A DNA stretch of 32,000 bases from an uncultured archaeon (GTDB lineage Archaea > Asgardarchaeota > Thorarchaeia > Thorarchaeales > Thorarchaeaceae), in the NCBI GenBank assembly GCA_964354495.1, contig CAYHAA010000012.1, forward strand, positions 1 to 32,000, in the 5' to 3' direction. The position numbers were made by a program, and so were the translations under genes. Below the pieces are notes generated by a model that was not told the origin of the DNA, ran no database searches, and saw only the letters and a program-made list of their open reading frames with translations. Positions 1,597 through 22,309 of this stretch are shown piece by piece; the first letter of the stretch is position 1; each line of letters starts with the position of its first letter.

Positions 1597-3654
1597 CTAG
1601 AAACTCCATACATGGAATGAGGTTTCTCCATATTGGAAAGCCCGATATTCAGTTATCCCAAAGAAAGAATATCTTTCTATTAGTTCGTCAATGACAGCTG
1701 TTGCATTTGCCAAATCAAGCTGACAGAACTTTGCATCGGGCATCGCGAGGATGGAATAGCTGTTGTTTCTCAGATATTCAATGAAATAGCCTGCAGATTC
1801 ATCACCCTCATCAGGAGCCCAAGGATCCCCGAAGCCACTCATGGTATAGTAATAGTCCCCGTAATTCCTCATGTAGTAGTTGAATCCACTTTGCCCGAAT
1901 CTTGAGTAGAGAAGACTAGAGTTCCCATTGATGATACTATGAACATATTCTGCGGCCTCATCATATGCTAGATACTCGTTATTCACAGAATAGTGAATCT
2001 GCTGCGGAATAGAAATCGCCCGTTCTCCTACTCCAGCAGCGAATGAGGTAAGTAGAATAATAGTCACGCTCAGCACTGCGATCTTCTTGACACTCTGAAT
2101 TGACGGTGTTGGTATTCCTTTCTTTCCAGCTGCTCTTGAATCTGTGATAATCTTCAGCGTTTCCTGCAGAAATGCTCCAATAAGGAAAAGCGATGAGATT
2201 GCAAGTAAAGACAAAGCTGGTACAAAAAAGCGATCAACTACATGAGGCCAACCTGCATCAAGCGTGAAGAATGCATACCAAGAAGCGTATGTTAGAGTAA
2301 TAGTAAACAGAATCCATGAGCGTTTCCAGACAGCAAGAAGAAACACCAGAAAAATGCTTCCATATCCGAGCGTTCCCCAAAAGACTCCCATTTGAAGATC
2401 AAGCCTAAAGAGATAGTCAAATAGACTGGGTGGTAGAAGATATGTTGGATCTGGGACATACTCCCGACTCACCATTCCTCCCAATTGTACAATTATGAGC
2501 CATGGGCCGAATATTGTTAAGTATAGTAGACAGGATTTGAACCACAGTGTCAGACTCTTTGCATGATTGGATCTGGATATCGCCCATAGCAATAGGATGA
2601 ACACAAAAACAGCGGCTTGAACAAGAATCACATTTTTCCATAAGCTTCCAGTTGCGAGTGATAGAAACAGGGAAAGAAGATAGATGTTGCTGACATTGTT
2701 TCCTGAGGATTTGAAGAATCGGATGAGTAAGAAACAATTCAATGTAAAGAACATCGCCACTCCCGCGGTCAGCATGATTTGAGCAGAGAATACTATCGTT
2801 GGCGTGTAGAGGAGGAAAATCCACCCTGCCACCATCCCCAGTATCTTATGAATTCTGTTTGCTTGCTGCCCCTGCCCCGAGAAGGCTTCCAGGAGGTCTG
2901 ATGTGATTTTCATGATGAACACTGCGGACAGTACCATAAGCAGCACATCAAACAACCTTAGAATCAATAGAGTGACATCTGTGTAACCAAAGAGAAGGAG
3001 TGGCGCCACGTAGGATACTGGCTGTAGCGGACCGAATCTTGCAATATCCCACTCATGTACTACAAAGGATGATGATAGAACAACTAGTGCGCAGAATGCG
3101 CCTCCGATTATTATGTGGGCAACGCGCGACAGCATAGTCTTCTCAAACAAGGAGCGGAAGAACGACTGAATCCGATTCTCTCCTATTATGCCAGCTGCGA
3201 TCAGAATCACTATTGACAGAACAATAACAGCGAGGGAAATAGCAATCCCGACTAATGTCGAATCCAAACGAGAACCAAGTGTGAGTATCCTCTCGAGAAA
3301 CGCGATTCTTCCAAGATGGACTGGTTCATCATCAATTGGTTTTATCGGGGCGAGCAAAAGAGGAAGTAGCAGCAAGGCGTATGCGAATGATGTGCCTGCA
3401 AAGTAACCTACTGTCACTCCATTTCTCTTCAACAGAAACACAATGTCGATCTTCTTGCTTGGTTCGCCTAGAATGTCAGTTAAGAGGTATCCCAGAATCT
3501 CAGGTATGATGAATGCGATTGTAAAAACAAATGCGATTTGCAGTATTATTCCATCTATTAGCATCCAAATCGGGAACAGGAGATAACATGCAATGAGAAG
3601 TACGTATGTAGAGGCTCTCAGTAAGGTTTGGTACGATATGTGACCGATTTCCAA
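1597..3654 (-). CDS. Multi-pass membrane protein, probable GT-C-fold (ArnT/PMT_2-like) glycosyltransferase
   Basis: More than 12 hydrophobic segments. Acidic loop motif PIDDEPVH, then LRLFDVLL, TGSLWKN and DRFFVPALSLLAI (RYxxPxxP-like), plus a soluble C-terminal domain. Sits in a sugar-nucleotide/GT2 locus. TTG start uncertain. Confidence 0.65.
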   Translation of the reverse strand: MEIGHISYQTLLRASTYVLLIACYLLFPIWMLIDGIILQIAFVFTIAFIIPEILGYLLTDILGEPSKKIDIVFLLKRNGVTVGYFAGTSFAYALLLLPLLLAPIKPIDDEPVHLGRIAFLERILTLGSRLDSTLVGIAISLAVIVLSIVILIAAGIIGENRIQSFFRSLFEKTMLSRVAHIIIGGAFCALVVLSSSFVVHEWDIARFGPLQPVSYVAPLLLFGYTDVTLLILRLFDVLLMVLSAVFIMKITSDLLEAFSGQGQQANRIHKILGMVAGWIFLLYTPTIVFSAQIMLTAGVAMFFTLNCFLLIRFFKSSGNNVSNIYLLSLFLSLATGSLWKNVILVQAAVFVFILLLWAISRSNHAKSLTLWFKSCLLYLTIFGPWLIIVQLGGMVSREYVPDPTYLLPPSLFDYLFRLDLQMGVFWGTLGYGSIFLVFLLAVWKRSWILFTITLTYASWYAFFTLDAGWPHVVDRFFVPALSLLAISSLFLIGAFLQETLKIITDSRAAGKKGIPTPSIQSVKKIAVLSVTIILLTSFAAGVGERAISIPQQIHYSVNNEYLAYDEAAEYVHSIINGNSSLLYSRFGQSGFNYYMRNYGDYYYTMSGFGDPWAPDEGDESAGYFIEYLRNNSYSILAMPDAKFCQLDLANATAVIDELIERYSFFGITEYRAFQYGETSFHVWSF

Positions 3655-4070
3655 GAATGATGCATCCCTAGACCGTTCTAGAACTCGACAAAATTGGCGG
3701 TATAAAAAGGTTGCAGCTGACCTGAACCAATACTCGATTAGCTTACTTCATCAGATAAGTCATGGTGTACTGTGAGTGGACGCACTAGGTCGTGCCTTCA
3801 AACGGGCATCTGATTGTAGGGCATCAAAACGCTATGACGATGCAGTCAGCATTCTCAAGTCCGTATTAAAAGAAGATGAATTTGAAAGGCAGATTCGAAA
3901 TTAGTTCAACTGACGGGTTGGCAGCAGATACGAAGCTTCTAAGCTGGCGCAAGGGCTGTGTCTATCTCAGCTTGAATCAGATTAAAAGCACTATTCTTAA
4001 GATAGATTATCTTCAACCGAATGTATGCTTGTCTTGTTGGTTTTAGCTCCTGAAAACAACCGAGTAGTGA

Positions 4071-5363
4071 TTGCCAGTGAATGAAGAATCGATGATTCCG
4101 AAAGAAATTCTTGATCAACTAGAAAGGATATTCGAGGAACAAAAGAGGAAAAATGCATCATCATATGAGTTTCCACTTGTCAAACCAACATTTGATTTTG
4201 ACGAAATCAAGGAAGCACTCGAATCTCTTCTTTCGACTAAAGTGACAATGGGTGAAAAGGTACGTAATTTTGAAGCATCTTTTGCAAAATACATAGGTGT
4301 TCGTAATGCGATTATGGTCAACTCAGGTTCTTCAGCGAATCTTCTTGCTATGGCAATTCTATCAAATTCAAGTATTGAAAATCCACTAATGCCAAATGAC
4401 AAGGTGATAGTTCCCGCGTTGACGTGGCCAACGAGTGTGTATCCAATTGCTGATGTGGGTACATTGCCTGTATTTGCAGATTCGAAGCTTGCCACCCTGA
4501 ACTTGGACCCCGATTCGGTTAGAGCCGCCATGACCCCTGATGTTAGGGCAATCATGGCAGTCCACCTAATCGGAAATCCATGTGATATGAATGAGCTGAA
4601 TGAGATTTGTGATGAGCATGGACTATATCTTATTGAAGACTGCTGTGAAGCTCATGGGGCAGAATTCAATGGCAAGAAGGTAGGGTCATTTAGAGACCTA
4701 GGGACATATAGCTTCTTCTTCTCCCACCATATCTCTACCATCGAAGGTGGAATGGTTGTTACGGATAATGATGAGTATGCAGAACTTGCTAGAGCTCTTC
4801 GAGCCCATGGTTGGACCCGGGATCTAGTGAACCGCAAGAGGGTGGAGAGCAAATATGCAAATCGAGACCCTCGGTTCCTATTCATCAATCGGGGATACAA
4901 TCTGCGTCCGACCGAGATACAAGGCGCATTTGGAATTCACCAGATCAAGAAACTGGACGACTTTGTGAGGCTACGAAGAAGACATGCTTCTATCTTGCTT
5001 GATGCTCTAGCAGATGCAAAGATTGACATCCATGTACAACATGAGCAGGAGCGCGGAAAGCATAGCTGGTTTGGTTTTCCAATGGTTCTCAAAGAGGGGG
5101 ATTGGGCCAGCAGAAGCAAGGTCGTTGAGAGAATGGAAAAGCGGGGAGTCGAGACGAGAGTAGTAATGGGAGGCAATATGGAAGTTCAGCCCGCAAGGCA
5201 GACTTATCCCGCAATGGCTCCAGTGCCGTTGGGTGTAGCTAGTCATGTGGATCGTCTTGGAATGCTCATTGGAGTCCACGCAGAGATGACCGATGAGGAA
5301 TGTAATGACCTCTCGGAGAGAATCATCTCTGCACTGAGAGAGAAACAGACCGATTTGAGGTAA
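4071..5363 (+). CDS. colD: DegT/DnrJ-fold PLP enzyme, GDP-4-keto-6-deoxy-D-mannose 3-dehydratase (ColD)-like
   Basis: NSGSSANLL, EDCCEAHGA, SFFFSHHISTIEGG (His at the Schiff-base Lys position), LRAHGWTRDL, GYNLRP. Adjacent to fcl and gmd. Alternative ATG start at 4092. Confidence 0.8.
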   Translation: MPVNEESMIPKEILDQLERIFEEQKRKNASSYEFPLVKPTFDFDEIKEALESLLSTKVTMGEKVRNFEASFAKYIGVRNAIMVNSGSSANLLAMAILSNSSIENPLMPNDKVIVPALTWPTSVYPIADVGTLPVFADSKLATLNLDPDSVRAAMTPDVRAIMAVHLIGNPCDMNELNEICDEHGLYLIEDCCEAHGAEFNGKKVGSFRDLGTYSFFFSHHISTIEGGMVVTDNDEYAELARALRAHGWTRDLVNRKRVESKYANRDPRFLFINRGYNLRPTEIQGAFGIHQIKKLDDFVRLRRRHASILLDALADAKIDIHVQHEQERGKHSWFGFPMVLKEGDWASRSKVVERMEKRGVETRVVMGGNMEVQPARQTYPAMAPVPLGVASHVDRLGMLIGVHAEMTDEECNDLSERIISALREKQTDLR

Positions 5364-5368
5364 GTGAT

Positions 5369-6307
5369 ATGGAAAAGACAGACAGGATATATGTTGCGGG
5401 ACATAGAGGCATGGTTGGAGGAGCGATTCTCCGCAACTTGGAATCCTCCGGGTACACAGATGTCCTGACTGCTACAAGGGAGCAATTAGACCTGACGGAT
5501 CAACATGCTGTAAGAGCATGGTTTGAAGTGAATAGGCCAGATTATGTATTCCTTGCTGCAGCAAAAGTTGGGGGAATCCAAGCGAACATTTCTTCACCTG
5601 CGACCTTCATCTATGACAATCTGATGATTCAGACGAACGTTATTCATAGTGCATATCTGTCTAGTGTGAAGAAGCTCGAGTTCCTTGGGAGTTCCTGTAT
5701 CTATCCCAGAGAATCAAAACAACCGATGAAAGAAGAGTACATACTGACTGGTCCAATGGAACCGACAAATGAGGCATATGCAGTTGCCAAGATTGCAGGG
5801 TTGAAGATGTGCGAATTCTACAGAAGACAATACGGATTCAATGCAATCACAATCGTTCCGCCAAACCTCTACGGCCCTGGAGATGACTTCTCTATAGAGA
5901 AGTCTCATGTAATTGCAGCCCTCATACGGAGGTTCCATGAAGCAAAGATTCAGAGGAAAAAAAGCGTCACCCTCTGGGGAACAGGAAGCGCTCGAAGGGA
6001 GTTCATGTACGTTGATGACCTAGCGGATGCAGCTGTCTATTTGATGAACGAGTATGATGATGACCAGTTCATCAACGTGGGGACAAGTAGCGATATGTCA
6101 ATCCTTGAGCTTGCGGAATTGGTGAAAGAGACTGTTGGTTTCAAGGGCTCAATCAAACTTGACAGATCAAGACCTGATGGTATGCCAAGAAAACTAATGG
6201 ACAGCTCTAGGTTCGGTCGCATGACTTGGAATAGGATAACGGACATCCGGACAGGCCTGAGACTGACTTACGAATGGTTGCTGGCAAATGCAGAGGCCGT
6301 GCCATAG
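5369..6307 (+). CDS. fcl: GDP-L-fucose synthase / GDP-colitose synthase (ColC)-type epimerase-reductase
   Basis: YVAGHRGMVGGAI, FLAAAKVGGIQAN, FLGSSCIYP, EPTNEAYAVAK, PPNLYGPGD, WGTGSARREF, PDGMPRKLMD. Confidence 0.92.
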   Translation: MEKTDRIYVAGHRGMVGGAILRNLESSGYTDVLTATREQLDLTDQHAVRAWFEVNRPDYVFLAAAKVGGIQANISSPATFIYDNLMIQTNVIHSAYLSSVKKLEFLGSSCIYPRESKQPMKEEYILTGPMEPTNEAYAVAKIAGLKMCEFYRRQYGFNAITIVPPNLYGPGDDFSIEKSHVIAALIRRFHEAKIQRKKSVTLWGTGSARREFMYVDDLADAAVYLMNEYDDDQFINVGTSSDMSILELAELVKETVGFKGSIKLDRSRPDGMPRKLMDSSRFGRMTWNRITDIRTGLRLTYEWLLANAEAVP

Positions 6308-6309
6308 CT

Positions 6310-7365
6310 CTACCCCGGTGTTTCTTCACTATTACTCCACAGGAGACCGTTCTTCTTGAGGAACTCGATACCTTCACTTGGAGGCTCAAGTCCGACACTT
6401 AACATGTCATAATCAACCATTATCCTCACCAGTTCCTTGAATCTTACCTTTGGATTCCAGCCGAGCTTTTTCCGTGCCTTTGAGGGATCAGATAGAAGAT
6501 AGTTGACATCCGAGGGTCGCATGTAACGTTCGTCCTGTTTGATGTATTTCTCCCATTCAAGACCTGCGTAGGAGAACGCTTCAGTGATTAGATCTCTGAC
6601 GCTGTGGGACTCACCAACTCCGACAACATAGTCATCGGGCCTGTCAGCTTGCAGCATTTTCCACATGAGTTCAGTATACTCCGGAGCGTAACCCCAATCG
6701 CGTTTTGCATCCAGATTCCCAAAGTACAGGACATCGATCTTCTTTGCCAAGATTTCTGCGATCCCATGAGTCACTTTTCTCGTGACGAATGTCCTTCCAC
6801 GGCGGGGAGATTCATGATTAAAGAGAATTCCAGAGCAATTGAACATTCCATATGCTTCTCGATAATTCACTGTGACCCAGTGTGCATAGACTTTTGCAGC
6901 AGCATACGGACTCAACGGATGGAATATGGTCTGCTCATTCTGGGGAGGTGGACTTGCACCAAACATCTCAGACGATGATGCTTGATAATAGCGAACATCC
7001 AGTTTGCTCTGTCTGATTGCTTCTAACAGAGCAATGGTCCCAACACCATTCACCATTGCAGTGTATTGAGGAAGGTCAAATGATACACGAACATGACTCT
7101 GTGCTGCTAGATTGTAGACCTCATCAGGTTCAGTTTCCCGAATCAAGAGGCTCAACGAGGAGGCATCGGTCACATCGCCATAGTGCAACTTCAAATGTAC
7201 GTCAGCTTCATGAGGGTCTTGGAAGATGTGAGTTATCCTCTGTGTATTGAAAGTGCTAGTACGACGGATGACTCCATGGACGTCATATCCGCGTGACAAG
7301 AGAAACTCAGCGAGATATGATCCATCTTGTCCAGTGATTCCTGTGATAAAGGCAGTCTTACTCAT
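6310..7365 (-). CDS. gmd: GDP-mannose 4,6-dehydratase
   Basis: [70 protein letters not shown]. Confidence 0.97.
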
Positions 7366-7807
7366 TCATTTCATCCTCTAGAACTGAGTCTTCGTCTTTC
7401 ACTGATACGGGAGAGTAGACCAGAATTATACCCACCGCAATTGCGATTAGTCCTGCAGTATTCAAGTAATCAACTGACTCTGCAAATAACAATATGCCCA
7501 AAGTGAAGACTGTCATCACCGAGAAGGCCAAGAAGAATCCTTCCGATATTCCGAGTGGATTCTTTGACAGGACTACTCCCATGATTAACTTGGCAACCAA
7601 GGATAGGCCAAAGGCTGCAATAATCGGAGCACTAAGAATGAAGGCCAGCCAAAACTCACCCTCCAAGAGCCGTTCAAAAGTGCTACCAACGTCCATGTTT
7701 CCCATTTTCAGCAGGACATCACCGGCGCCATAGATTGCAGTAGCGATAAGAAGAGGAAACCAGAAGGTTGCTCGTGCATACGACGTCATCTTGTCCATCT
7801 CTATCAC
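7358..7807 (-). CDS. 4-TM SMR/EamA (DMT superfamily) protein, ArnE/ArnF-like
   Basis: Four hydrophobic helices with [27 protein letters not shown] and [12 protein letters not shown]. Start overlaps the upstream stop (GTGA); 3' end overlaps the gmd start by 8 bp. Confidence 0.72.
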
Positions 7808-8178
7808 ACCAAAAGGATTATTCCAATCGTGACTAGCGCAAATCCGACAAGCTGGATCTTTTTCAGGTCCTCATTGAATACGATACGACCAGCAAGTACT
7901 GAGAATACTGCGACTGAAGCCAAGTAGATTCCCCCTGCCAAGTAGAGCGGGTTTGATGCCAATATAATTCCATAGAGCCCTTTTACGGCCAGCGTGATGA
8001 ATAATGATAGAATCACAATTGGCGAAAAGAGAAAATGTTTCCAAGATTTCGTATCAAGACCTCTCTCTGATTCCGCAAATGAAGTCATCCCTCCCTTCTT
8101 GAATAGGATTTCTCCTATCACGTGAACAGAGGCGATTCCCATTAATATCAAGATAAGGGTTAGAGTCGCAGAATCCAT
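7804..8178 (-). CDS. 4-TM SMR/EamA (DMT superfamily) protein, ArnE/ArnF-like, paralog of the neighbour
   Basis: [39 protein letters not shown]; 124 aa; SD-like GGTGAG upstream of the ATG. Confidence 0.75.
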   Translation of the reverse strand: MDSATLTLILILMGIASVHVIGEILFKKGGMTSFAESERGLDTKSWKHFLFSPIVILSLFITLAVKGLYGIILASNPLYLAGGIYLASVAVFSVLAGRIVFNEDLKKIQLVGFALVTIGIILLV

Positions 8179-8211
8179 TAGCGATACTCACCGTACAGCA
8201 TTGCAGAGCGC

Positions 8212-8928
8212 TTATGGATACGCTTTATTAATGAATCTCCTCCGCAGAAGAAGTTCGCTCAGGAAGAGTTTCAAGTAAGACAGGCCTACATCAAAGGATT
8301 TCACCTTCGACACGCCTCCAATCCTCCTGTGTTCATGAGTAGGGATCTCGGTTATTCTCATATTGAGTTTTGAAGCGCGAATGGTCATCTGCATTTCAAC
8401 TTCAAATGTCGAGTGAGGCAGGTTGAGATCCTTCATTCTCTCTCTCCAGATGGCGCGAAAACCATTTACCGCATCGGTGACCTTGGCTCTGAAAATCAGT
8501 CGACAAATAGCTGTGAAGAAGAGATTTCCGAAGGTTCTCAGGATTCCTGCGTCATCACTTGTCCCACCCTTGCCGAAACGAGTGGCTATGACAAGATTGG
8601 ATGTCAATACTGCATCTAGGAGTCGCGGGATATCGTCTGGATCTTCATTTCCATCTGGACTGAAAAAGAGGAGAATATCTTCCTTACATTCTTCAAGAGC
8701 GATTAGGAAGGCGCTCCCACGCCCGGGAGATCGACGCTTGGCTACTCGTATTCCTTTGCTCTCCCAGAACTCCCGCGTGCCATCAGTGCTGCCTCCGTCA
8801 ACCAAGAGCGAATTGTCGAACAGAGTGTGAGGTATCTTGTCAGCAAGAGCTCGGGACCCATGAATCTCGTTGTATGTCAATATGATCAATGCCTTTGTGG
8901 GAGTATGCCCTCTCTCTATGATGACCAT
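8212..8928 (-). CDS. GT2 glycosyltransferase, DPM1/polyprenol-phosphate glycosyltransferase-like
   Basis: LTYNE, VDGGSTDGT, GRGSA, FFSPDGNEDP, VIATRF, TDAVNGFRA, FEVEMQM, EIPTHEHRRIGGVSK. Confidence 0.88.
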   Translation of the reverse strand: MVIIERGHTPTKALIILTYNEIHGSRALADKIPHTLFDNSLLVDGGSTDGTREFWESKGIRVAKRRSPGRGSAFLIALEECKEDILLFFSPDGNEDPDDIPRLLDAVLTSNLVIATRFGKGGTSDDAGILRTFGNLFFTAICRLIFRAKVTDAVNGFRAIWRERMKDLNLPHSTFEVEMQMTIRASKLNMRITEIPTHEHRRIGGVSKVKSFDVGLSYLKLFLSELLLRRRFINKAYP

Positions 8929-9093
8929 CGAAATATCTCCGTACGACAGCTGTTAGCATGCATCCTGATAGAAAAAGGGAATACTATAATAATCCATCAG
9001 TTTGAAAAATGAAACTCACAACGGGGAACATTTTTCCAGCAACTCATTTCGCATCAAAGCAGTTGATAAGGGAATGAGAGAGATGCGATAGTA

Positions 9094-9801
9094 ATGAAAC
9101 GTCCTACTGTGGCCCTGGTCTTATTGGTAAAAAACGAGCTGGAGCCCATGAAAGAGGTCATCCCAAAAGTGGACACCGCTCTCTTTGATGACCTTCTTTG
9201 TATGGATGGGCATTCAACAGATGGAAGCGTTGAGTTTCTCGAATCACGGGGCATTCGTGTAGTACAGCAGAAGGAGAGAGGCAGAGGAAAAGCTGTGATT
9301 GAATCAATTGAACAGACAGACGCTGATGCGCTCCTCTTCTTCAGTCCAGATGGAAATGAAGATCCAAGTGACCTGCCACATTTGATTGACACAATGATAG
9401 CTCATCATGCTGATCTGGTAATTGCCTCAAGATTTACCGAGGGCTCAGTTAGTGACGATTCTGATGATCCCTATAAAATCAGAAGAGCTGGGAATATGTT
9501 CTTTTCCAGACTTACCGGGCTGTTTTGGGGTGGCAGTGTCACTGATGCAATTAATGGCTATCGTTTGATAAAGCGAAACCTTTTGAAACATCTAAGGCAA
9601 GATGCGCAGGGCTACAATATCGAAATTCAACAGACAATTAGATGTCTCAAATTAAAGAGGAGAGTGGTTGAGATTCCCACTAGAGAATTGGAAAGAGTGG
9701 GTCCCGCAAAGCAATCACCAACTCTCAAAATGGGATCACAATTCACCAGAGTAATCCTAAAGGAGCTCTTCTTGGGGACTCGTTTTCTCTCAAAGAGCTA
9801 G
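9094..9801 (+). CDS. GT2 glycosyltransferase, DPM1-like, divergent paralog of 8212-8928
   Basis: LVKNE, MDGHSTDGS, GRGKA, FFSPDGNEDP, VIASRF, TDAINGYR, IEIQQT, EIPTRELER. Confidence 0.88.
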   Translation: MKRPTVALVLLVKNELEPMKEVIPKVDTALFDDLLCMDGHSTDGSVEFLESRGIRVVQQKERGRGKAVIESIEQTDADALLFFSPDGNEDPSDLPHLIDTMIAHHADLVIASRFTEGSVSDDSDDPYKIRRAGNMFFSRLTGLFWGGSVTDAINGYRLIKRNLLKHLRQDAQGYNIEIQQTIRCLKLKRRVVEIPTRELERVGPAKQSPTLKMGSQFTRVILKELFLGTRFLSKS

Positions 9802-10655: not shown

Positions 10656-12374
10656 TTACTTGTGCATCTCATATCTTCCATTCAACGAATAGACTTCCTT
10701 GATAATCGCCTCATACCTCTCCTTGTCTACATGCGGCTTCATAATCATTCTCAGTAGTATCTCCTGCTGTTTTTCTGTAGTGCTCTGCTTCGAATACATC
10801 TGGAGGGCATATCTTGAGAAGTCACGAACCATGAAATCAAAGATCTGATCGAGCAAGTGGTCCGATATCTTGTAGATCTTGGCATTCTCAATTATCAGTT
10901 GCCCATAGACCACTAAAGAAAACAGCTCTCCCGCATTCAGTATGAAATCAAGGTCCTCGCCCTGTTTCTCATCAGGCGTTGCCTCAGTCATGAACTCATT
11001 GAATACCTCAACCTGTTTCTTGAATATGTTCACATTGGGTAGGTCTACGGTGTCGTACACAGTTCGATAGTCATGGAATCTGATACCGCTCAGGCCTTTT
11101 GTGATACCTTGATTGAAGAGAAACTCATCATCCTTTGGCTCAGATATTGTACCCACAGCAGGGTATTCCTGAGGCATGAAGAAGTACGCTGGCATGAACT
11201 TGATGATCTGTGCCATGTTGACATGAACTGTTCCCTCGAGCTTTGGCAGTGCACGAATATCTCGTGCTGCCATTGAGAAGTAGGTCTCCCCTTCAAAACC
11301 ACGTGCTGCGATGATATCCCATAGGAGGTCAATCACCTTTTCGCCTTCACTCGTGACCTTCATCTTCACAAGGGAGTTGTAGAGGATATACCTTCTATCT
11401 TCCAGAGATGCAGTCCTCATGTAGTCCCCAGCTCTGAGGGCAAAGAGTTTCATGGCCACCAATCGGGCATATGCGTCAGTGAAGAACTGTCGAATATGCG
11501 AGAACTCGGTCACATATTTTCCATAGAGGTATCTGTTGGATGCATGATTGATGGCCTCGTAGAGAGCATGTGTGCAGATACCAATCGAACCCCATCCAAG
11601 ATTGAACTTGCCCACATTGACAGTGTTCAGTGTACAGTCCCAAGCCTCTCTCGCCTTGGAGAGAATATCTGTTTCTGAAATCGGGTAGTCATTCAGCTTG
11701 TACTCCGCAACGTACGATTGCACGTTCACCACATTCCTGACACACTCGTAGTTCGGATGTTGAGAGTCCGCCACAAAGAAGACGTAGTTGCCGTAGTTGG
11801 TATTCTCTGGGTCAGAGGGAACATCTGTCTTCCCGAACACCGAGACCATTCGTGCCACGTTTCCGTTCCCGATATAGTACTTCGAGCCATTAGCTACGTA
11901 CTTACCGTCTCCCAATACCTTCAGGCTCATTTCCGATGAGTAGAGATCTGCTCCGTGGTTCTTCTCGCTCAAGCCAAATGCAAAGACCTCCCCCTGCTTG
12001 AGGTATTTTGCTGCCTTCCTCTTCGCATTCTCATTCTTGCTCATCCAAATTGGCCCAAGACCGAGAATTGAGACCTGCCAGGTGTACCAGTAGTGAAGAC
12101 CATAGAATGCCAGTATCTCATTGAACTCCATGTTCCGCCATGTGTCCCATCTACATCCCTTCTCACCATACTTACTAGGTGTGAGTAACTTGTAGAAAAT
12201 CTCATTCTTCTTAACGAAGTCTAGAAAGTCTTGGTACCAGACTCTCTCATGGTCATCATTCTTGAGGGCGACTTTTCCCTTGTTCTCAAAGAACTGGACG
12301 GTCTTCCTCATTATGTTTCTTGATTCAGCATCTGAGTATTTGCGAGTGAGGTTATTGGGATCCAGTAGAATCAC
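10656..12374 (-). CDS. Acyl-CoA dehydrogenase
   Basis: FAFGLSEKNHGADL, NGSKYYIGNG, GKFNLGWGSIG, LVKMKVT, RALPKLEGTVHVN. GTG start at 12374 follows a GGAGG SD and gives VILLDP; the track's upstream extension is probably not translated. Confidence 0.92.
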   Translation of the reverse strand: MILLDPNNLTRKYSDAESRNIMRKTVQFFENKGKVALKNDDHERVWYQDFLDFVKKNEIFYKLLTPSKYGEKGCRWDTWRNMEFNEILAFYGLHYWYTWQVSILGLGPIWMSKNENAKRKAAKYLKQGEVFAFGLSEKNHGADLYSSEMSLKVLGDGKYVANGSKYYIGNGNVARMVSVFGKTDVPSDPENTNYGNYVFFVADSQHPNYECVRNVVNVQSYVAEYKLNDYPISETDILSKAREAWDCTLNTVNVGKFNLGWGSIGICTHALYEAINHASNRYLYGKYVTEFSHIRQFFTDAYARLVAMKLFALRAGDYMRTASLEDRRYILYNSLVKMKVTSEGEKVIDLLWDIIAARGFEGETYFSMAARDIRALPKLEGTVHVNMAQIIKFMPAYFFMPQEYPAVGTISEPKDDEFLFNQGITKGLSGIRFHDYRTVYDTVDLPNVNIFKKQVEVFNEFMTEATPDEKQGEDLDFILNAGELFSLVVYGQLIIENAKIYKISDHLLDQIFDFMVRDFSRYALQMYSKQSTTEKQQEILLRMIMKPHVDKERYEAIIKEVYSLNGRYEMHK

Positions 12375-12489
12375 TGTTGTGCCTCCTAACAATTGTAGAC
12401 ACAACAGGATGTAAAATGTGTTCTGGCGCCATTTCCATGCCAACACTCTTAAAGGCGCTGAGCATCACTTGCCGTCTTAGGTGCGAACT

Positions 12490-14445: not shown

Positions 14446-16197
14446 TTAGGTGTAGCCTCTCTTCTTCAACTCCGCATCGCGAAGTTCCCTTCTCAGTACC
14501 TTTCCAACATTGCTCATGGGCAGGCTGTCTACAATCTCAACCTCTCTGGGACGCTTGTAGCCCGCCATCTCATCTCTCGCCCACTCTATGAACTCTTCAG
14601 GTGTCGCTCTCTCACCATCTTTCAATACAATGTACGCCTTGACGAACTCATTGCTGCGATCTTCTTCACGTGGAATCCCTATGGCTGCTGCCATCTGCAC
14701 CTTCGGATGGGTGAATAGTATGTCCTCGATTTCCCGCGGGTATGCCTTCATGCCACCGACATTGATCATCTGTTTCTTTCTGTCGCTGATGAAAGTGTAG
14801 CCGTTCTCGTCCATTTTGCCAATATCGCCTGTCAGGAAGAAGCGCTTCCCACCAAACGTTCGTATCACATTCGCAGTTTCATCAGGTTTTTTCCAGTATC
14901 CCTTGAAGACCTGTGGGCCGTGGACTGCAATCTCGCCAACCTCACCAACTGGCATCTCTCTCTTCCCTGTTTCCATGTCGACTATCTTGCAGATTGTGTC
15001 TGAGATTGGAAGACCTATCGAGCCGAACTTGCGATATTTGCTGTTCGTGGGATTAATGTGGGTCACTGGTGACGTTTCCGTAAGTCCATACCCCTCAAAG
15101 AGAAGTGTACCTGTCACTGCTTCGAAAGCCTTGGCAACCTCTGGCGGCAATGGTGCAGCTCCTGAACTGCAGATAGTGACTGATGATAGATCGTATTTTC
15201 CGACATTGGGATGATTTGCGATACCAGCATAGAGTGCAGGCACGCAGTTCAAGACAGTTCCTTTGGTTCTTGACAGCTCACTCAACAGATCGGACAGCGG
15301 AGGCTTTCCAGATCTAGGATTAGGAATGCATACCAGTCTTCCGCCGAGCCATGTGGCCATAAGCATTGTCAGCGTGAGGCCATAGCTGTGATACCAGGGT
15401 ATTGCCCCGACAAACACCTCTTCTCCATACCTGACACCGCCCGATCTCTCTGCATCCTCCTCCTCCAAGTAGACCCACTCTGCTATCTGCAGTATGTTTG
15501 ATATCATATTATGGTGGGTCAGTTCAGCACCCTTTGGGTTTCCTGTTGTTCCCCCGGTATAGATTAGAACTGCTGTGTCCATTGGGTCGATGGTGACCTG
15601 AGGTGCCTTGGGTTCATATGTAGAGAGAATCTGCTCATAGAAGACAGTCTTGTCTTGTTCGTAGTACGGACTCTTGGGTATCTTTCCAAGAAGCCCGCCC
15701 AGTACTGCCTTCACTTTGGACAGGAATGGTTTCACACTGCATACAACGACAGTGTGGACTTCAGTGCCCTTGACTGCTTCATAGCATATTGGTGTGAATG
15801 TTGGGTGATCCAGTGCAAACACTATACATGCACCAGTGTCCTTCAGCTGGTAGTTCAGTTCGCCAGCCTTGTATAATGGATTGCATGTTACGACCTTTGC
15901 CCCTGCCTTGAGTGCGCCAAAGAACACAGCAGGGAAGTGAGGCACATTTGGGAGAAAGATGGCTACCTTGTCTCCTTCCTTGATTCCCTTGCTAGCGAGA
16001 AAGTTGGCTATCCTGTCTGCGTGTTCTTTCACTTCGCTGTACGTCTGTGATTTTCCCATGAATACAGTGTAGGGTAAGTGTCCGCTCTTCTCGGCCGCCC
16101 TATCCAACATTGCGAATAGGGGTTCCTTTGGATAGTTCAGGGTCTTCCTAGTACGTTTTGGCCATGCAGCACCTGATTGCCAGTATGCGTCATCCAA
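14446..16197 (-). CDS. fadD: Long-chain-fatty-acid--CoA ligase-like AMP-forming acyl-CoA synthetase (paralog 1, 583 aa)
   Basis: YTGGTTGNPKG, EGYGLTETSP, FFLTGDIG, DRKKQMI, YPREIED, PMSNVGKVLRR. TTG start after AGAGAGGAG. Confidence 0.92.
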   Translation of the reverse strand: MDDAYWQSGAAWPKRTRKTLNYPKEPLFAMLDRAAEKSGHLPYTVFMGKSQTYSEVKEHADRIANFLASKGIKEGDKVAIFLPNVPHFPAVFFGALKAGAKVVTCNPLYKAGELNYQLKDTGACIVFALDHPTFTPICYEAVKGTEVHTVVVCSVKPFLSKVKAVLGGLLGKIPKSPYYEQDKTVFYEQILSTYEPKAPQVTIDPMDTAVLIYTGGTTGNPKGAELTHHNMISNILQIAEWVYLEEEDAERSGGVRYGEEVFVGAIPWYHSYGLTLTMLMATWLGGRLVCIPNPRSGKPPLSDLLSELSRTKGTVLNCVPALYAGIANHPNVGKYDLSSVTICSSGAAPLPPEVAKAFEAVTGTLLFEGYGLTETSPVTHINPTNSKYRKFGSIGLPISDTICKIVDMETGKREMPVGEVGEIAVHGPQVFKGYWKKPDETANVIRTFGGKRFFLTGDIGKMDENGYTFISDRKKQMINVGGMKAYPREIEDILFTHPKVQMAAAIGIPREEDRSNEFVKAYIVLKDGERATPEEFIEWARDEMAGYKRPREVEIVDSLPMSNVGKVLRRELRDAELKKRGYT

Positions 16198-16295
16198 TTC
16201 ACTTCATCTCCTCTCTTGGTAGCGAATCACTGCAATCTCTGATTGCTACCTACCAATAGGATAATGCTGCAGTCCCTCAAATATCTTGAGGAATC

Positions 16296-16328
16296 AAAAA
16301 AGAAGAAGGCGGGAGATAGATCTCCCGC
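16296..16328 (-). terminator. Intrinsic terminator-like hairpin plus pyrimidine/U tract after the upstream fadD paralog
   Basis: Minus strand GCGGGAGA-TCTA-TCTCCCGC followed by CTTCTTCTTTTTT, 9 nt after the stop at 16338. Confidence 0.75.
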
Positions 16329-16337
16329 TAGTCTGGT

Positions 16338-18089
16338 CTACGCTAAGCCTCTCTTCTGTAATTCCTTGGTCCGTAGTTCTCTTCTCAAGACCTTTCCTAC
16401 ATTAGTGAGCGGCAGCGAGGTGACAAACTCGACTTCCTTGGGTCGTTTGTAGCCGGCCATCTTGTCCTTCGACCACTCGATGAACTCATCGGGTGTCGCC
16501 TCGACTCCAGGCTTGAGGACTATGAAGGCCTTGACAAACTCGTTGCTTGGGTCCTCCTTCCTCGGCACACCAATGACCGCAGCCATCTGCACTTTAGGAT
16601 GCTCGTAGAGTATATCCTCAATCTCTCGTGGATACGCCTTTAGGCCGCCTACATTGACCATGTCTTTCTTTCTGTCAGAGATTATAGTGAAACCTTCTTT
16701 ATCCATGTGTCCGATGTCACCGGTGAGGAAGAAGCGTTTTCCATCAATCTGACGGAAGACCTGCTTGTTTTCCTCGGGCTTGTTCCAATATCCCTGCATC
16801 ACCTGAGGCCCTGATACAGCTAGCTCACCAGTTTCACCAATTGGCAACTCCTTGACACCTGTCTCGAGATCTACAATCTTGCAGTACGTGTCTGGTACTG
16901 GCAGACCAATTGATCCGAACTTGCGGTTTGTCTTGTTTGTAGGGTTGACGTGTGTCACTGGTGAGGTTTCGGTCAATCCATATCCTTCGAAGAGGATTGC
17001 CCCTGTGACATCCTCAAAGGCCTTAGCAAGCTGAGGAGGAAGTGGAGCTGCCCCCGAACTACAGACCTTCACAGATTTCAGATCGAACTCCTTCACTTTG
17101 GGGTTGTTGACAATACCTGCATAGAGTGCCGGTACGCAATTGAGAATTGATCCCCTGTACTTCTCAAGTTCTTTCAGTAGTTCTGTCATTGGGGGCTTTC
17201 CAGCACGTGGGTCGGGAATGCAAACGAGCTGGCTGGCAAGATAGGTTGACATAAGCAGGGTCAAAGTGAGGCCATAGCTATGGTACCATGGCAGGGCACC
17301 AACGCACACCTCTTCGCCAATGCGCATTCTTCCGCTCTGAGGATGGTCCTTCGGGTCCAGCCAGACATAGTTGAAGATTTGGAGGACGTTTGAGTACAGG
17401 TTGCTGTGAAGCAATGCTGCTCCCTTTGGCACTCCTGTCGTGCCTCCTGTGTAGAGTATCAGCGCCACGTCTTCCTTACGGTTGAACTTGACATTGGGCG
17501 GCTTGGCTTCAGAACTTGCCACAATGTCATCATAGAAGACAGTCTTATCATCCTCGTAGAATGGGCTCTTGGGTATCTTCCCGAGGAGCCCACCAATCAC
17601 TGCCTTTGCTTTGGGTAAGAATGACTTTATGCCACAGACAATCACTTTCTCCACTTTTGTGTCCTTAATCGCCTCGTAGCATGATGGTGTGAAGACTGGA
17701 TGGTCCAGAACAAAGACTACTCTTGTGCCGGAGTCCTTCAGCTGAAAATTGAGTTCTCCAGGTTTGTAGAGCGGATTACATGTAACTGCAGTCGCTCCAC
17801 TTTTCAAAATGCCAAAGAACACTGGCGGATAGTGCGGCATGTTGGGCATGAAAATTGCAACCCTGTCGCCCTTCTTGATTCCAATGCTTGCCAGATAGTT
17901 GGCAATCTTATTAGCATCTTCTCTTACTTCTGCGTAAGTTCTCTTTATCCCCATGAACACGGTATACGGCAGGTCACCATGCTCGTTGGCTGTCTTGTCC
18001 AGCAAAGCATAGAGTGGCTCGTCCGGATATTCGAGTGAATGGGGCGCTTCTTTTGGCCACTTGTATTTGTGCCAAAGCATCTCTTCCAT
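16338..18089 (-). CDS. fadD: Long-chain-fatty-acid--CoA ligase-like AMP-forming acyl-CoA synthetase (paralog 2, 583 aa)
   Basis: YTGGTTGVPKG, EGYGLTETSP, FFLTGDIG, DRKKDMV, LPLTNVGKVLRR. ATG at 18089 after AGAGAGGA gives exactly the length of paralog 1. Confidence 0.92.
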   Translation of the reverse strand: MEEMLWHKYKWPKEAPHSLEYPDEPLYALLDKTANEHGDLPYTVFMGIKRTYAEVREDANKIANYLASIGIKKGDRVAIFMPNMPHYPPVFFGILKSGATAVTCNPLYKPGELNFQLKDSGTRVVFVLDHPVFTPSCYEAIKDTKVEKVIVCGIKSFLPKAKAVIGGLLGKIPKSPFYEDDKTVFYDDIVASSEAKPPNVKFNRKEDVALILYTGGTTGVPKGAALLHSNLYSNVLQIFNYVWLDPKDHPQSGRMRIGEEVCVGALPWYHSYGLTLTLLMSTYLASQLVCIPDPRAGKPPMTELLKELEKYRGSILNCVPALYAGIVNNPKVKEFDLKSVKVCSSGAAPLPPQLAKAFEDVTGAILFEGYGLTETSPVTHVNPTNKTNRKFGSIGLPVPDTYCKIVDLETGVKELPIGETGELAVSGPQVMQGYWNKPEENKQVFRQIDGKRFFLTGDIGHMDKEGFTIISDRKKDMVNVGGLKAYPREIEDILYEHPKVQMAAVIGVPRKEDPSNEFVKAFIVLKPGVEATPDEFIEWSKDKMAGYKRPKEVEFVTSLPLTNVGKVLRRELRTKELQKRGLA

Positions 18090-18385
18090 GTTTTTATCCT
18101 CTCTATAATGATACCTGACACGAGTCATCGTAGTCAAGATCAGTTGAAGTATTGTCATTCAGCGTAGCATTCGTTGCTCATATTTCCTTCTACTGACAGT
18201 GATTCTTCGCTGTAGCATAACAAATAAGATGGATGGTGCTAGAAATTGACTATTACTACCGTTCATTGTCAATTGGACAATCCTGGACACCGGAGTGCTG
18301 TCCGCCCAGAAAACGGCACTGGGCACAACTTCGTGAGGCCAGCGTTCGTGTCGGGTGAACCTCAGAGTTGTGTTCCTCAGCACAG

Positions 18386-18393
18386 TATATAAA
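18386..18393 (+). promoter_or_regulatory. Archaeal TATA box candidate for the dehydratase operon
   Basis: TATATAAA ending about 24 nt before the TTG at 18417, consistent with a leaderless transcript. It also reads TTTATATA on the minus strand. Confidence 0.55.
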
Positions 18394-18416
18394 CACCTGT
18401 CCAACTTTGTCCAAGA

Positions 18417-19670
18417 TTGAAGCAACTGCTGCATACCCTGCAGTTGTGCGAGGGAGCAATATTGAGTTACGAAGGAATACTCGAACAGTCTAGTGCTGGC
18501 CTGCAGCAGCTTCTCGAGGCCGGTGAGGAGGTCATAGGTTACATTTATCCCCATACGCCACTTGAATTGATACTTGCTCATGGTCTGACGCCGTCATTCC
18601 TGCGAGGCCTACCGGGAGTATCCGGCGGATTTGAGGAGAGTCTGCAGACATTCGCCTGTTCTTATGTCAGGAATCTGTACAGCCAGAGGACTAACGATCA
18701 GATGCCATCTATCACTGGTTTCATCTTTCCAAGCAACACCTGTGATTCTCTTTACAATCTTTCAGATGTGTGGCGCTTTCGTTTCCCGGATGATGTGGTC
18801 TTCCGACTGACATATCCTGCCACAAGGCATGTCAAAGATGGCTCTATTGTGAGATACCTAACAAAGGAACTCCAACTATTGAGCAATAGAATTGAGGAAT
18901 CACTTGACCGTCCATTTATGCCTGAGAACTATCAACGTGCCGTATCACTTGTGGGTCAGTTCCGCGAAGATGCGCAGTATCTGTACAGTGCACGAGTTGC
19001 AGATCCGGCAGTACTATCCTATACCGAACTCTGTCGTCTGATACGCGCCTTTCTTACGACACCAATCCCTGCTGTCGGATTGGAGTTACACGACACTACA
19101 TCATTGGTTCGTAATAAGATTAAGAAGATGGCACTCTCTAACGTTGTCACGTCCATCCTTAAAGCATTCAAGACTGGTCACTTCTCGCAGATCAAGAAAC
19201 TCAAACCATCACACAGATCAAGGATTGCTGTTGCTGGTGGTATGGTGGAACCCCAAGCAGTTGCTAACATCATCACTGGTGTTCGTGGATTCACTGATTC
19301 AAGACTTGTTCTCGATTTACTCTCCTTTGGTTTCAAGACGGCGTTCACTCCGCCCTTGGATGCGAAGGGTGATCCCTTTGAAGAAATGGCGAAGTCCATC
19401 TTATCGGCTCCGGGAGAACCAACCCAGGAAGGACTACGTCATCGGATGATCTATCTTGAAGAGCTTCTGGAACCCCTACAAATTGATGGTCTAATGGTGT
19501 TTGAGCAGTCCTTCTGTGATCCTGACGAATTCGAGGCTCCCTCAATTGAAAGAGCGGCCTCTCGGCAAGGAGTGCGAACGGTCAGAATCCCCATTGATCC
19601 AGAACTGTCTGATAGAGCTCGTATAGAAGTGAGAATTCAGAGTTTCTTGGAGTCCTTTGATAAGACCTGA
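18417..19670 (+). CDS. 2-hydroxyacyl-CoA dehydratase / class I benzoyl-CoA reductase family, beta-type subunit (HgdB/HadC/BcrC-like)
   Basis: TPLELILAHG, TFACSYV, SNTCDSL, QSFCDPDEFE, RIQSFLE: the three-Cys cluster pattern. Confidence 0.8.
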   Translation: MKQLLHTLQLCEGAILSYEGILEQSSAGLQQLLEAGEEVIGYIYPHTPLELILAHGLTPSFLRGLPGVSGGFEESLQTFACSYVRNLYSQRTNDQMPSITGFIFPSNTCDSLYNLSDVWRFRFPDDVVFRLTYPATRHVKDGSIVRYLTKELQLLSNRIEESLDRPFMPENYQRAVSLVGQFREDAQYLYSARVADPAVLSYTELCRLIRAFLTTPIPAVGLELHDTTSLVRNKIKKMALSNVVTSILKAFKTGHFSQIKKLKPSHRSRIAVAGGMVEPQAVANIITGVRGFTDSRLVLDLLSFGFKTAFTPPLDAKGDPFEEMAKSILSAPGEPTQEGLRHRMIYLEELLEPLQIDGLMVFEQSFCDPDEFEAPSIERAASRQGVRTVRIPIDPELSDRARIEVRIQSFLESFDKT

Positions 19671-19680
19671 GGTGAGCATA

Positions 19681-20898
19681 GTGACAGAGACAAAGAAAGA
19701 AGAGAAAGTCTATCGCCAGCTTGAATCAAATTCACTACTCCAACAGATTATGTTCCAGTATATGTTAGAGGGTCAACAGGCCAGTGAAGAAAAGCGTCTG
19801 GCATGGGTGACCTCAGGATTCCCTGTGGAGATTCCTGTGGCAATGGGCGTTGGTGTGAGTTATCCTGAGCAGTATGGAGCTGTCGTAGGGTCTCAAAAGG
19901 TAGGCCCCGAATTGTGTGGCTATGCTGAAGAGATTGGTTACTCGCAGGAGTTGTGCTCTTATGCACGAGCAAGTATAGGTTCAGTGGATAAGCCGAATGC
20001 AAGCCCAATGGGTGGACTACCAGTTCCTCAGGCACTTCTTGCTTCCAACAACATCTGTGGCACTGTCCTCAGATGGTACGATGCAGTATCAGAGCAGACC
20101 GGCGCACCCGTGTTCCTCTTGGACACACCACCGATTGATGGTGAACAACCTGAGCATCACAAAGAGTATGTGAGAAAGGGGATTGACCGGCTTGTGGATT
20201 TTCTTGGGACGACCTTTCACACGACCCTTACAGAGAAGAGAATGCGCGAGGTCGCTGCTCTTTCCAGTAGAGCTGTCAAACTCTATAATCAATCCCTGGC
20301 TGCATGTAAGAATCGACCATCGCCGCTGAACTGTGCTGATCGCTTCTTGGCGATGGCGCCTGTGGTTTCCATGAGAGGTTCTGATCTTATCATCGACTTC
20401 TATCAGGCTCTCTTAGATGAAGTGAACTCAAGAGTGAAAGAAGGCATAGGTGCAATCCGCGATGAGAAGATACGTCTGCTCTGGGACAATATTCCGCCAT
20501 GGCATTCCATTTTCAGGTTCTTTAATGGTCTGGCAAAGAGAGGTGTGGCCTTTCCAGCTGATACTTACACGCATGCATGGTCTGGAGCCATTGAAACTGA
20601 TGACCTATATGGGAGCGTCGTGAGCATATATTCCAATTCGTACCTTAACAAGGGACTTGGGGCAAAGATAGACAAGATGTGTCAGCTGATTGAGGACTAT
20701 GACCTTGATGGCTTCATCATGTTCTCAGTGCGATCCTGCAAACGCTACTCCCTTGGTCAGCTAGTTTCGAAAGAGATCGTTAGCGAACGGACCGGGGTTC
20801 CGGGAGTTGTAATAGAGGGTGACATGGTGGATTCGAGAGTATATAACGAGGCTCAGATACAGACCCGAGTAGATGCACTTCTTGAGATGTTTCTCTGA
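19681..20898 (+). CDS. 2-hydroxyacyl-CoA dehydratase / class I benzoyl-CoA reductase family, alpha-type subunit (HgdA/HadB/BcrB-like)
   Basis: PEQYGAV, ELCSYARASIG, NNICGT, RLLWDNIPPW, RSCKRYSLG, IEGDMVD. GTG start after a GAGGTGA SD. Confidence 0.85.
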   Translation: MTETKKEEKVYRQLESNSLLQQIMFQYMLEGQQASEEKRLAWVTSGFPVEIPVAMGVGVSYPEQYGAVVGSQKVGPELCGYAEEIGYSQELCSYARASIGSVDKPNASPMGGLPVPQALLASNNICGTVLRWYDAVSEQTGAPVFLLDTPPIDGEQPEHHKEYVRKGIDRLVDFLGTTFHTTLTEKRMREVAALSSRAVKLYNQSLAACKNRPSPLNCADRFLAMAPVVSMRGSDLIIDFYQALLDEVNSRVKEGIGAIRDEKIRLLWDNIPPWHSIFRFFNGLAKRGVAFPADTYTHAWSGAIETDDLYGSVVSIYSNSYLNKGLGAKIDKMCQLIEDYDLDGFIMFSVRSCKRYSLGQLVSKEIVSERTGVPGVVIEGDMVDSRVYNEAQIQTRVDALLEMFL

Positions 20899-20908
20899 GG
20901 TACTGACT

Positions 20909-21739: not shown

Positions 21740-22309
21740 TCACTCTTTGTTCTTAGCCAAAGCCTCTTCGCCCGCTCTCATGCCCAATTCCAATGCGAGC
21801 ATATTCGTCTTGAGGAACTTCGGCCATTTTTCTTCGATTCTGGCTTTCAGTCCCTCAATTGATAATGCCCTCGTGATGACGGTAAAGGCTCCTAGCATGA
21901 CCATATTCGTCGCTTGTTTGTTACCTACTTCTTTGTCTGCAATCCTTGTCGCCGGGATCTTGTGAACCTTCACTCCCTTCGGAAGCTTACCCTCCACGCC
22001 CACCATGTCTTCATCTATGATGAGGACTCCATCCTCCTTTAGACCGTTGACGTATTCCAGGTACGCAGCTCTACTTAGCGCCACAAACACATCAGGTGCT
22101 ATGACCTTTGGATAGTCAATCTCTTCATCAGAGATAACGACCTCGCTCTTGCTCGCACCGCCACGGGCTTCCGGCCCATATGACTGGGTCTGCACGACGT
22201 ACTTATTGTCATTCAATGCAGCTGTTTCTCCGATCACCACTGCCATCGTGACCACACCTTGGCCGCCAAAGCCTCCGATTCGTATCTCGTACCTGCTCAA
22301 ATCATTCAC
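21740..22309 (-). CDS. korC: 2-oxoacid:ferredoxin oxidoreductase gamma subunit
   Basis: RIGGFGGQGVV, QSYGPEARGGAS, NMVMLGA. Overlaps the beta stop. The 2-oxoacid substrate cannot be determined from sequence. Confidence 0.9.
   Translation of the reverse strand: MNDLSRYEIRIGGFGGQGVVTMAVVIGETAALNDNKYVVQTQSYGPEARGGASKSEVVISDEEIDYPKVIAPDVFVALSRAAYLEYVNGLKEDGVLIIDEDMVGVEGKLPKGVKVHKIPATRIADKEVGNKQATNMVMLGAFTVITRALSIEGLKARIEEKWPKFLKTNMLALELGMRAGEEALAKNKE

Follow-up and report, generated by a model that had tools for sequence, protein, structure and literature searches.

An eight-gene cassette (positions 1597-9801) was studied in the first 32,000 nucleotides of contig CAYHAA010000012.1 (GenBank assembly GCA_964354495.1, an uncultured archaeon of the Thorarchaeaceae), and this whole stretch is referred to here as the window. 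The sugar-making part of the cassette consists of colD, fcl and gmd at 4071-7365, which encode the proteins P0001, P0002 and P0003, and a guanosine diphosphate (GDP)-L-colitose-type pathway is the best explanation of these three genes, one that we consider fairly probable judging from gene identities and synteny. Sequence comparisons support the assignment of P0001 as a ColD-type 3-dehydratase, with a His residue in place of the catalytic Lys and no iron-sulfur (Fe-S) cluster, and not as an E1/RfbH enzyme or an aminotransferase. The initial annotation had been limited to the three sugar genes, all of which are indeed present, and this frame turned out to be too narrow, as the cassette also holds two GT2 glycosyltransferases of the dolichyl-phosphate-sugar type, two small SMR/EamA-like membrane proteins and one GT-C transferase. 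We regard the finding as a sound re-annotation, namely of a known kind of enzyme in an unreported host, together with a plausible lipid-carrier route for its product.

Active site and family placement of P0001

At 4725-4727, the open reading frame (ORF) of colD has a CAC codon, which specifies His219, the first His of SFFFSHHISTIEGG; further downstream, LRAHGWTRD spans residues 243-251 of P0001 and RAHGWTR residues 244-250. Codon reading and ORF translation thus confirmed both motifs as initially annotated, and the positions given earlier for fcl and gmd were right as well (Table 1). In a HMMER alignment, S218-H219 of P0001 coincide with S187-H188 of Escherichia coli ColD (2gms), which places His219 at the catalytic His188, the sole column at which the mutant entries 3b8x (N) and 2r0t (K) differ from 2gms. 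DegT paralogues with Lys, including one from the same genome, read T-K at these columns. Ser187 of E. coli ColD is important for ColD chemistry. The surrounding motif is F[FY]SHH in ColD-like proteins and FFFSHH in P0001, while the RfbH/E1 references read FYPAHH, as had been noted before. Since S218, H219 and H220 are invariant across 145 ColD-like sequences, His219 is characteristic of the family rather than fortuitous.

The E1 Fe-S motif C-X57-C-X-C-X7-C is complete in five of five RfbH-type sequences. In P0001 and in E. coli ColD, only the first of these Cys residues is found in the alignment, the other three columns being occupied by a gap, Leu and a gap. The absence of the [2Fe-2S] motif sets the ColD mechanism apart from that of E1 and SpnQ: in ColD the enamine is hydrolysed and pyridoxamine 5'-phosphate (PMP) is regenerated from glutamate, whereas E1 and SpnQ depend on a reductase (PMC8987622). 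Without this motif, P0001 is predicted to have no need of a reductase partner. E1/RfbH/DdhC (cytidine diphosphate (CDP)-6-deoxy-L-threo-D-glycero-4-hexulose 3-dehydrase) and SpnQ accordingly compare with P0001 as a sister family, which shares with it the replacement of Lys by His and a length of ~430-445 aa, but which differs in the FYPAHH motif, the cysteines for [2Fe-2S], the requirement for a reductase and the rfbF/rfbG neighbours (PMC8987622 in part).

Among solved structures, ColD 2gms is the best match of P0001 (1.8e-83, colinear over residues 33-409), and weaker matches were obtained for the E1 dehydrase 3bcx (2e-60) and perosamine synthase (8e-50). P0001 has the same fold as ColD (WbdK), the GDP-4-keto-6-deoxy-D-mannose 3-dehydratase of E. 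coli O55 (2gms, 3b8x, 2r0t, 3gr9), and aligns with it over the full length; the two proteins have in common the Ser-His-His with His at the Lys position, RAHGWTR with Trp248, the missing [2Fe-2S] motif and a gene that lies beside gmd and an Fcl-family gene. P0001 is distinguished from ColD by an identity of 39%, an N-terminal extension of ~30 residues, its position in the other half of the clade (see below) and its archaeal host, and its cassette, unlike the E. coli colD locus, is not set in an O-antigen wzx/wzy context.

For the family comparison, ColD, ColC, Gmd and Fcl of E. coli O55:H7 were taken as references from annotated records, in addition to a Qipengyuania rfbF-rfbG-rfbH cluster, a Rhodococcus rfbH, a Paracoccus gmd-fcl-colD-like cluster and a Haladaptatus plasmid cluster, and these were joined by 80 genome loci with relatives and by representatives from a full HMMER scan. 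In the maximum-likelihood dehydratase tree of 58 rows, 44 rows make up a ColD-like clade (support 100/99*), to which the E1 clade (100/97*) is sister (99/91*), and the Lys enzymes fall outside both. The ColD-like clade is divided into half A (92/93), with E. coli ColD and Paracoccus, and half B (87/87), in which P0001 is placed within an Asgard clade (100/97*) and which also includes haloarchaeal, Heimdallarchaeum, Bathyarchaeia, Woesearchaeota and various bacterial sequences. A phylogeny with ColD, E1/RfbH and PerA had been suggested as a check, and in the tree obtained here P0001 branches within the ColD-like clade and not outside, though in half B.

An ordinary DegT-type sugar aminotransferase or an E1/RfbH-type CDP-sugar dehydratase might be expected from the public names of the P0001 homologues ('DegT/DnrJ/EryC1/StrS aminotransferase' or 'CDP-6-deoxy-D-xylo-4-hexulose-3-dehydrase') and from RfbH (NF011936) being the best NCBIfam match of P0001. 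The first of these readings is contradicted by the replacement of the Schiff-base Lys by a His that is invariant in the family. The second is contradicted by the RfbH score, which at 309.7 is under the cut-off of 423, by the loss of three of the four Fe-S cysteines and by the position of P0001 outside the E1 clade; furthermore, no rfbF, rfbG or other CDP-glucose genes were found among the genes of the window. Together, the two readings retain a minimal probability. A pseudogene reading of colD in the sister genome G012 was likewise rejected, for the apparent 'TAG' is a stop located five codons earlier, and the resulting protein of 425 aa is comparable to the Asgard ColD-like homologues of 418-427 aa.

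Gmd and the Fcl-family reductase

With a score of 485.9 against TIGR01472 (Gmd), above the cut-off of 415, P0003 is by profile a bona fide Gmd, and the initial annotation is borne out on this point. P0002 reached 464.7 against NF047922 (Fcl, GDP-L-fucose synthase), narrowly under the cut-off of 500, and is the sole Fcl homologue in its own genome, which is 97.7% complete. The fcl gene starts 5 bp past the end of colD, for which both TTG 4071 and ATG 4092 are possible start codons. The adjacency of colD and fcl is retained in eight Asgard loci, and Asgard contigs whose ColD is as little as 62% identical still have the colD>fcl pair, the two genes being 9-40 bp apart.

ColC (WbdJ), the GDP-L-colitose synthase of E. 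coli O55 and Yersinia pseudotuberculosis, is, like P0002, a short-chain dehydrogenase/reductase (SDR) of the Fcl family with conserved Ser, Cys, Tyr, Lys and His residues and with a gene adjoining colD. The catalytic residues (S107, C109, Y136, K140 and H179 of E. coli Fcl), whose roles are described in the GMER literature, are kept in all Fcl proteins compared, including P0002. Among the Asgard sequences, the Fcl proteins linked to colD group in a clade of their own (8 rows, 100/99*), a lineage that is seen only directly downstream of colD. The colD-free Asgard Fcl proteins, by contrast, constitute another clade (100/99*) near E. coli Fcl, comprising sequences of two genomes of the same genus (G010 and G015) and that of a colD-less cassette on a Promethearchaeota contig (L115), where no colD was found within the 14 kb of contig examined and 'colD-less' covers those 14 kb only.

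The two groups also differ at three positions (E. coli Fcl numbering). The colD-free Fcl proteins carry T164, P207 and F272, while the colD-linked ones have Pro or Cys at 164, which lies within the P-x-N-L-Y-G pocket motif, Ala or Ser at 207, and Leu, His or Trp at 272. This linked 164/207/272 signature occurs in the Asgard clade, in E. coli ColC and in a 15-member bacterial clade; non-Thr164 and non-Pro207, as well as Met212, are common to ColC and P0002. By sequence, a tie of these residues to colD linkage is suggestive only. Two Fcl paralogues were observed in an Omnitrophota metagenome-assembled genome (MAG; L056, 9016-9909 and 655-1710), of which the copy 92 bp from a ColD-like gene has A164, A207 and W272 and the distal copy T164, P207 and F272.

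Proposed pathway and identity of the sugar

According to the proposed route, Gmd would convert GDP-mannose into GDP-4-keto-6-deoxymannose. P0001 would first be loaded as PMP, from pyridoxal 5'-phosphate (PLP) and glutamate, and with His219 serving as acid/base the C3 hydroxyl group would be expelled, leading to the release of GDP-4-keto-3,6-dideoxymannose and ammonia in a step that would involve neither an Fe-S cluster nor a reductase partner. Epimerisation at C5 and NAD(P)H-dependent reduction at C4 by the Fcl-family enzyme would then yield GDP-L-colitose, the sugar of which is 3-deoxy-L-fucose. We infer GDP as the nucleotide, as well as the final stereochemistry of the sugar. The initial annotation had proposed such a pathway with fcl acting as ColC. 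Its ColD-type enzyme and its Gmd are genuine, but P0001 is a half-B protein with only the said identity to ColD, and P0002 is, judged by sequence, no orthologue of the characterised ColC, which groups with Paracoccus and two MAG sequences in a long-branch clade of its own (100/100*). That fcl could nonetheless take the part of ColC gains indirect support from its being the sole Fcl homologue, from its immediate proximity to colD, from the retention of the colD>fcl pair in Asgard relatives and from its colD-linked Asgard lineage.

Several findings weigh against a GDP-L-colitose pathway. P0002 is nearer to E. coli Fcl (50% identity) than to E. coli ColC (38%) and lies outside the ColC clade, so that GDP-fucose could be an additional product or even its only one. 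The cassette might then be mainly one for fucose, in which Fcl chiefly makes GDP-L-fucose and ColD diverts part of the flow, such that both GDP-fucose and GDP-colitose are produced and the two GT2s might take one GDP-sugar each. The Gmd product serves both Fcl and ColD as a substrate, which would suit this alternative, as would the full set of catalytic residues in P0002 and the number of GT2 genes, one in the colD-less L115 cassette and two in the colD-bearing cassettes. The colD-linked Fcl lineage, however, is distinct from the colD-free Fcl of related Asgard genomes and differs from it at the pocket-motif positions, which suggests adaptation to a 3-deoxy substrate, and we consider a mainly fucose-directed cassette rather unlikely. 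A phylogenetically independent test of the Fcl signature against colD linkage comprised 2-4 pairs and had no power, and the raw association is not a statistic.

A second group of objections concerns the dehydratase and its substrate. Half B of the ColD-like clade is devoid of any characterised enzyme, the characterised ColD being in half A, and some half-B genes adjoin non-Gmd 4,6-dehydratases, for instance in Heimdallarchaeum (L022) and alphaproteobacteria, so that the GDP specificity of P0001 rests on context and the half-B family may not be GDP-specific. P0001 might thus be a 3-dehydratase of the ColD type that acts on another nucleotide sugar or leads to another product, such as a different 3,6-dideoxyhexose made without C5 epimerisation, and it would find parallels in half-B members beside non-Gmd dehydratases and non-Fcl reductases and in Haladaptatus, which has gmd, a LegB-like SDR and colD. 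The sole 4,6-dehydratase of the cassette is nevertheless a bona fide Gmd and its sole reductase belongs to the Fcl family, and both are kept in the Asgard relatives, which leaves this option improbable. In the loci mentioned (L022:9017-11206, L031, L035, L039 and L043, from Heimdallarchaeum and several alphaproteobacteria), the 4,6-dehydratases adjoining the ColD-like SHH genes score ~150-160 bits, far under the Gmd cut-off, and these ColD-like enzymes may act on another nucleotide sugar. On the Haladaptatus pallidirubidus YIM 93656 plasmid NZ_CP085304.1 (224023-228980), GtrA and GT2 genes are divergent from gmd, the LegB-like SDR gene and the ColD-like gene; the ColD-like protein of this cultured haloarchaeon is 44% identical to P0001, and with a reductase of a non-Fcl type the product may be another GDP-3,6-dideoxyhexose.

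Two further objections to a GDP-L-colitose pathway relate to the supply of GDP-mannose and to delivery. The genome yielded two GlmU-type enzymes of the archaeal kind and a nucleotidyltransferase of 287 aa, but no dedicated mannose-1-phosphate guanylyltransferase could be recognised. A search of it for ManC of the bacterial type (TIGR01479) was negative, which is not evidence that GDP-mannose synthesis is absent. The 287-aa protein (G000:C7:123381-124244) is 74% identical to a nucleotidyltransferase within a related cassette (L116:8069-8920) and may be a sugar-1-phosphate nucleotidyltransferase that supplies the pathway. As to delivery, the ArnE/F likeness of the two small membrane proteins is weak (E 0.002-0.1).

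The putative delivery genes

The remaining genes of the cassette (Table 1) would carry the sugar to the outside. One or both of the short GT2s would probably load it on dolichyl phosphate, the two SMR/EamA-like proteins would probably flip the lipid-linked sugar, and the GT-C enzyme would probably transfer it to an acceptor outside the cell, as in the Arn and Gtr systems. By this analogy, the cassette probably attaches colitose to the cell surface via a lipid carrier, and we infer both the lipid intermediate and the acceptor. Systems of this kind (Arn with ArnC, ArnE/F and ArnT; Gtr with GtrA/B/C; mycobacterial PpgS-type systems) modify their targets with a single sugar via a polyprenyl-phosphate carrier, and the cassette resembles them in having a GT2 synthase, small flippase-like proteins and a GT-C enzyme encoded with the biosynthetic genes of the sugar. 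It differs from them in that its putative sugar is a 6-deoxy or 3,6-dideoxy hexose from a GDP donor, in that there are two GT2s, and in that the GT-C protein matches no Pfam or NCBIfam model and the flippase assignment is weak.

Table 1. Genes of the cassette and the active-site codon of colD (window coordinates).
Feature	Position	Strand	Length	Remarks
P0277, GT-C fold membrane glycosyltransferase	1597..3654	-	685 aa	Predicted fold
P0001, colD-like gene, PLP/PMP-dependent nucleoside diphosphate (NDP)-4-keto-6-deoxyhexose 3-dehydratase, ColD type	4071..5363	+	430 aa	ColD 2gms match, tree
CAC codon, His219 at PLP-binding Lys position of DegT aminotransferases	4725..4727	+		Preceded by Ser218
P0002, Fcl-family 3,5-epimerase/4-reductase, candidate GDP-L-colitose synthase (ColC analogue)	5369..6307	+	312 aa	
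P0003, gmd, GDP-mannose 4,6-dehydratase	6310..7365	-	351 aa	Convergent with fcl
P0273, small multi-pass membrane protein, SMR/EamA-like; candidate ArnE/F-like flippase subunit	7358..7807	-	149 aa	
P0274, second small membrane protein, SMR/EamA-like	7804..8178	-	124 aa	4-bp overlap with P0273
P0275, GT2 glycosyltransferase, polyprenyl/dolichyl-phosphate sugar synthase type	8212..8928	-	238 aa	PF00535
P0276, second GT2, same type as P0275	9094..9801	+	235 aa	PF00535; divergent from P0275

The best NCBIfam matches of the two GT2s were AglJ (8.8e-28 for P0275 and 1.5e-31 for P0276), dolichyl-phosphate hexose transferase (2.5e-15 for P0276) and PpgS, all of them under the respective cut-offs. P0273 yielded a weak match to MdtJ (0.0023), and in the language-model atlas it resembles EamA clusters (0.95) and a cluster with an ArnE/F name (0.94); P0274 weakly matches EamA (0.0062), TMEM234 and ArnE (0.1). 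A complex prediction for P0273 with P0274 gave 0.34, compared with 0.00 for the best of three controls, and lends weak support to a pairing of the two. In the prediction runs the contacts agree to at least 81% and the partner pLDDT (predicted local distance difference test) is at least 67; of the 80 solved complexes and 110 mismatched pairs used for calibration, 58 and 2, respectively, came up to the mark, and scores at 0.60 or under comprised 7 of the 80 solved complexes and both passing mismatches.

P0277 is encoded divergently from colD across a 416-bp intergenic region. It has no Pfam or NCBIfam match, and its family was assigned by fold alone. Nine relatives were found in 5.8 billion proteins, and all four whose source is named come from Asgard archaea. 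The AlphaFold2 (AF2) model (pLDDT 74; predicted TM-score (pTM) 0.79) was superimposed on STT3, AglB, PglB, Pmt1/2/4 and ArnT with VIA-align Z values of 19-22, 345-470 aligned residues and a root-mean-square deviation of 4-6 Å; the top 47 rows of the structure ranking are all GT-C proteins, after which Z drops below 7. Foldseek ranks ArnT first, and the atlas likeness to PMT_2 clusters is 0.98. Judged by this model, P0277 has the GT-C membrane fold.

Conservation and distribution of the cassette

The whole cassette is also present in the sister genome G012 (protein identities of 86-97%), on a Sifarchaeia contig (L117) and on a Joint Genome Institute (JGI) contig (L116), and partial cassettes were found on two further contigs (L106 and L107). 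In the JGI contig the GT-C protein is just 38% identical and a nucleotidyltransferase gene is inserted. Both small membrane proteins are retained in all cassettes, and gmd and fcl remain beside colD across the Asgard relatives. The cassette of Promethearchaeota contig JBHLOW010000018.1 (L115:5104-11046) consists of one GT2 gene, fcl, gmd, the genes of both small proteins and a GT-C gene whose product is 68% identical to P0277; with its Fcl of the colD-free lineage, it is a natural fucose-type version of the cassette.

Within the genus, the cassette was detected in 2 of 25 genomes: among the 24 other genomes, colD and the GT-C gene occur in G012 only, and any Fcl was found in just three. The phyletic pattern of P0277 is the same as that of colD. 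The genes flanking the cassette differ from genome to genome, and together with the patchy presence in the genus this indicates that the cassette is an accessory, mobile trait. An E1/RfbH-type 3-dehydratase with FYPAHH was noticed in another genome of the same genus (G014:C81:2637-3899), from which the ColD cassette is absent, and members of one Asgard genus thus seem to carry different 3,6-dideoxyhexose routes.

We put forward, tentatively and as possible rather than probable, that the cassette is an Asgard-specific, horizontally shuffled module for surface-glycan variation, which would use a dolichyl-phosphate-colitose donor and a GT-C 'colitosyltransferase', and in which the presence or absence of colD along with the matched Fcl lineage would switch the sugar between L-fucose and L-colitose. 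To our knowledge, dolichyl-phosphate-colitose, or a lipid-linked 3,6-dideoxyhexose donor, has not been described in any organism. If the proposal is true, the GT-C 'colitosyltransferase' would be a previously unclassified one.

Host and neighbouring genes

The closest homologues carry the names Sifarchaeia, Promethearchaeota, Thorarchaeota, Lokiarchaeota and Heimdallarchaeum, and a Ras/Rab-family small GTPase gene, typical of Asgard genomes, lies at 25057-25572 (+; PF00071, 4e-43). Both observations bear out the Asgard host that had been deduced from the letters alone. The shares of sampled sequence words in wetland metagenome contigs are 0.2 or less and have no bearing on expression or habitat.

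Elsewhere in the window, at 14446-21691, two paralogous genes for AMP-forming acyl-CoA ligases are divergent from a 2-hydroxyacyl-CoA dehydratase alpha/beta pair with a BcrAD/BadFG activator, and an acyl-CoA dehydrogenase is encoded nearby at 10656-12446. Genes for 2-oxoacid:ferredoxin oxidoreductase subunits (-) are arranged in two blocks, 21740-23216 and 26691-28181, which are ~3.5 kb apart; the GTPase gene, an SDR gene and an unannotated 554-aa ORF are located in the stretch between them.

Implications

Experimental descriptions of colitose come from bacterial lipopolysaccharides, and our literature search found no paper reporting colitose or ColD experimentally from an archaeon. A genome survey remarked that TACK archaea lack the pathways for fucose and colitose (PMC7725333), which implies that these were predicted in other archaea. 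The cassette has no bearing on eukaryogenesis; its patchy distribution (2/25) points to an accessory trait of surface variation. If the proposed route is true, it would be a rare case of deoxysugar delivery via a lipid-phosphate carrier and a GT-C enzyme. Should the product be confirmed, the range of 3,6-dideoxyhexose chemistry would come to include Asgard archaea and, via related loci, haloarchaea, a function could be assigned to the large uncharacterised half of the ColD-like family, and the pair of colD-plus and colD-minus cassettes would become available for studying how Fcl-type enzymes adapt to 3-deoxy substrates.

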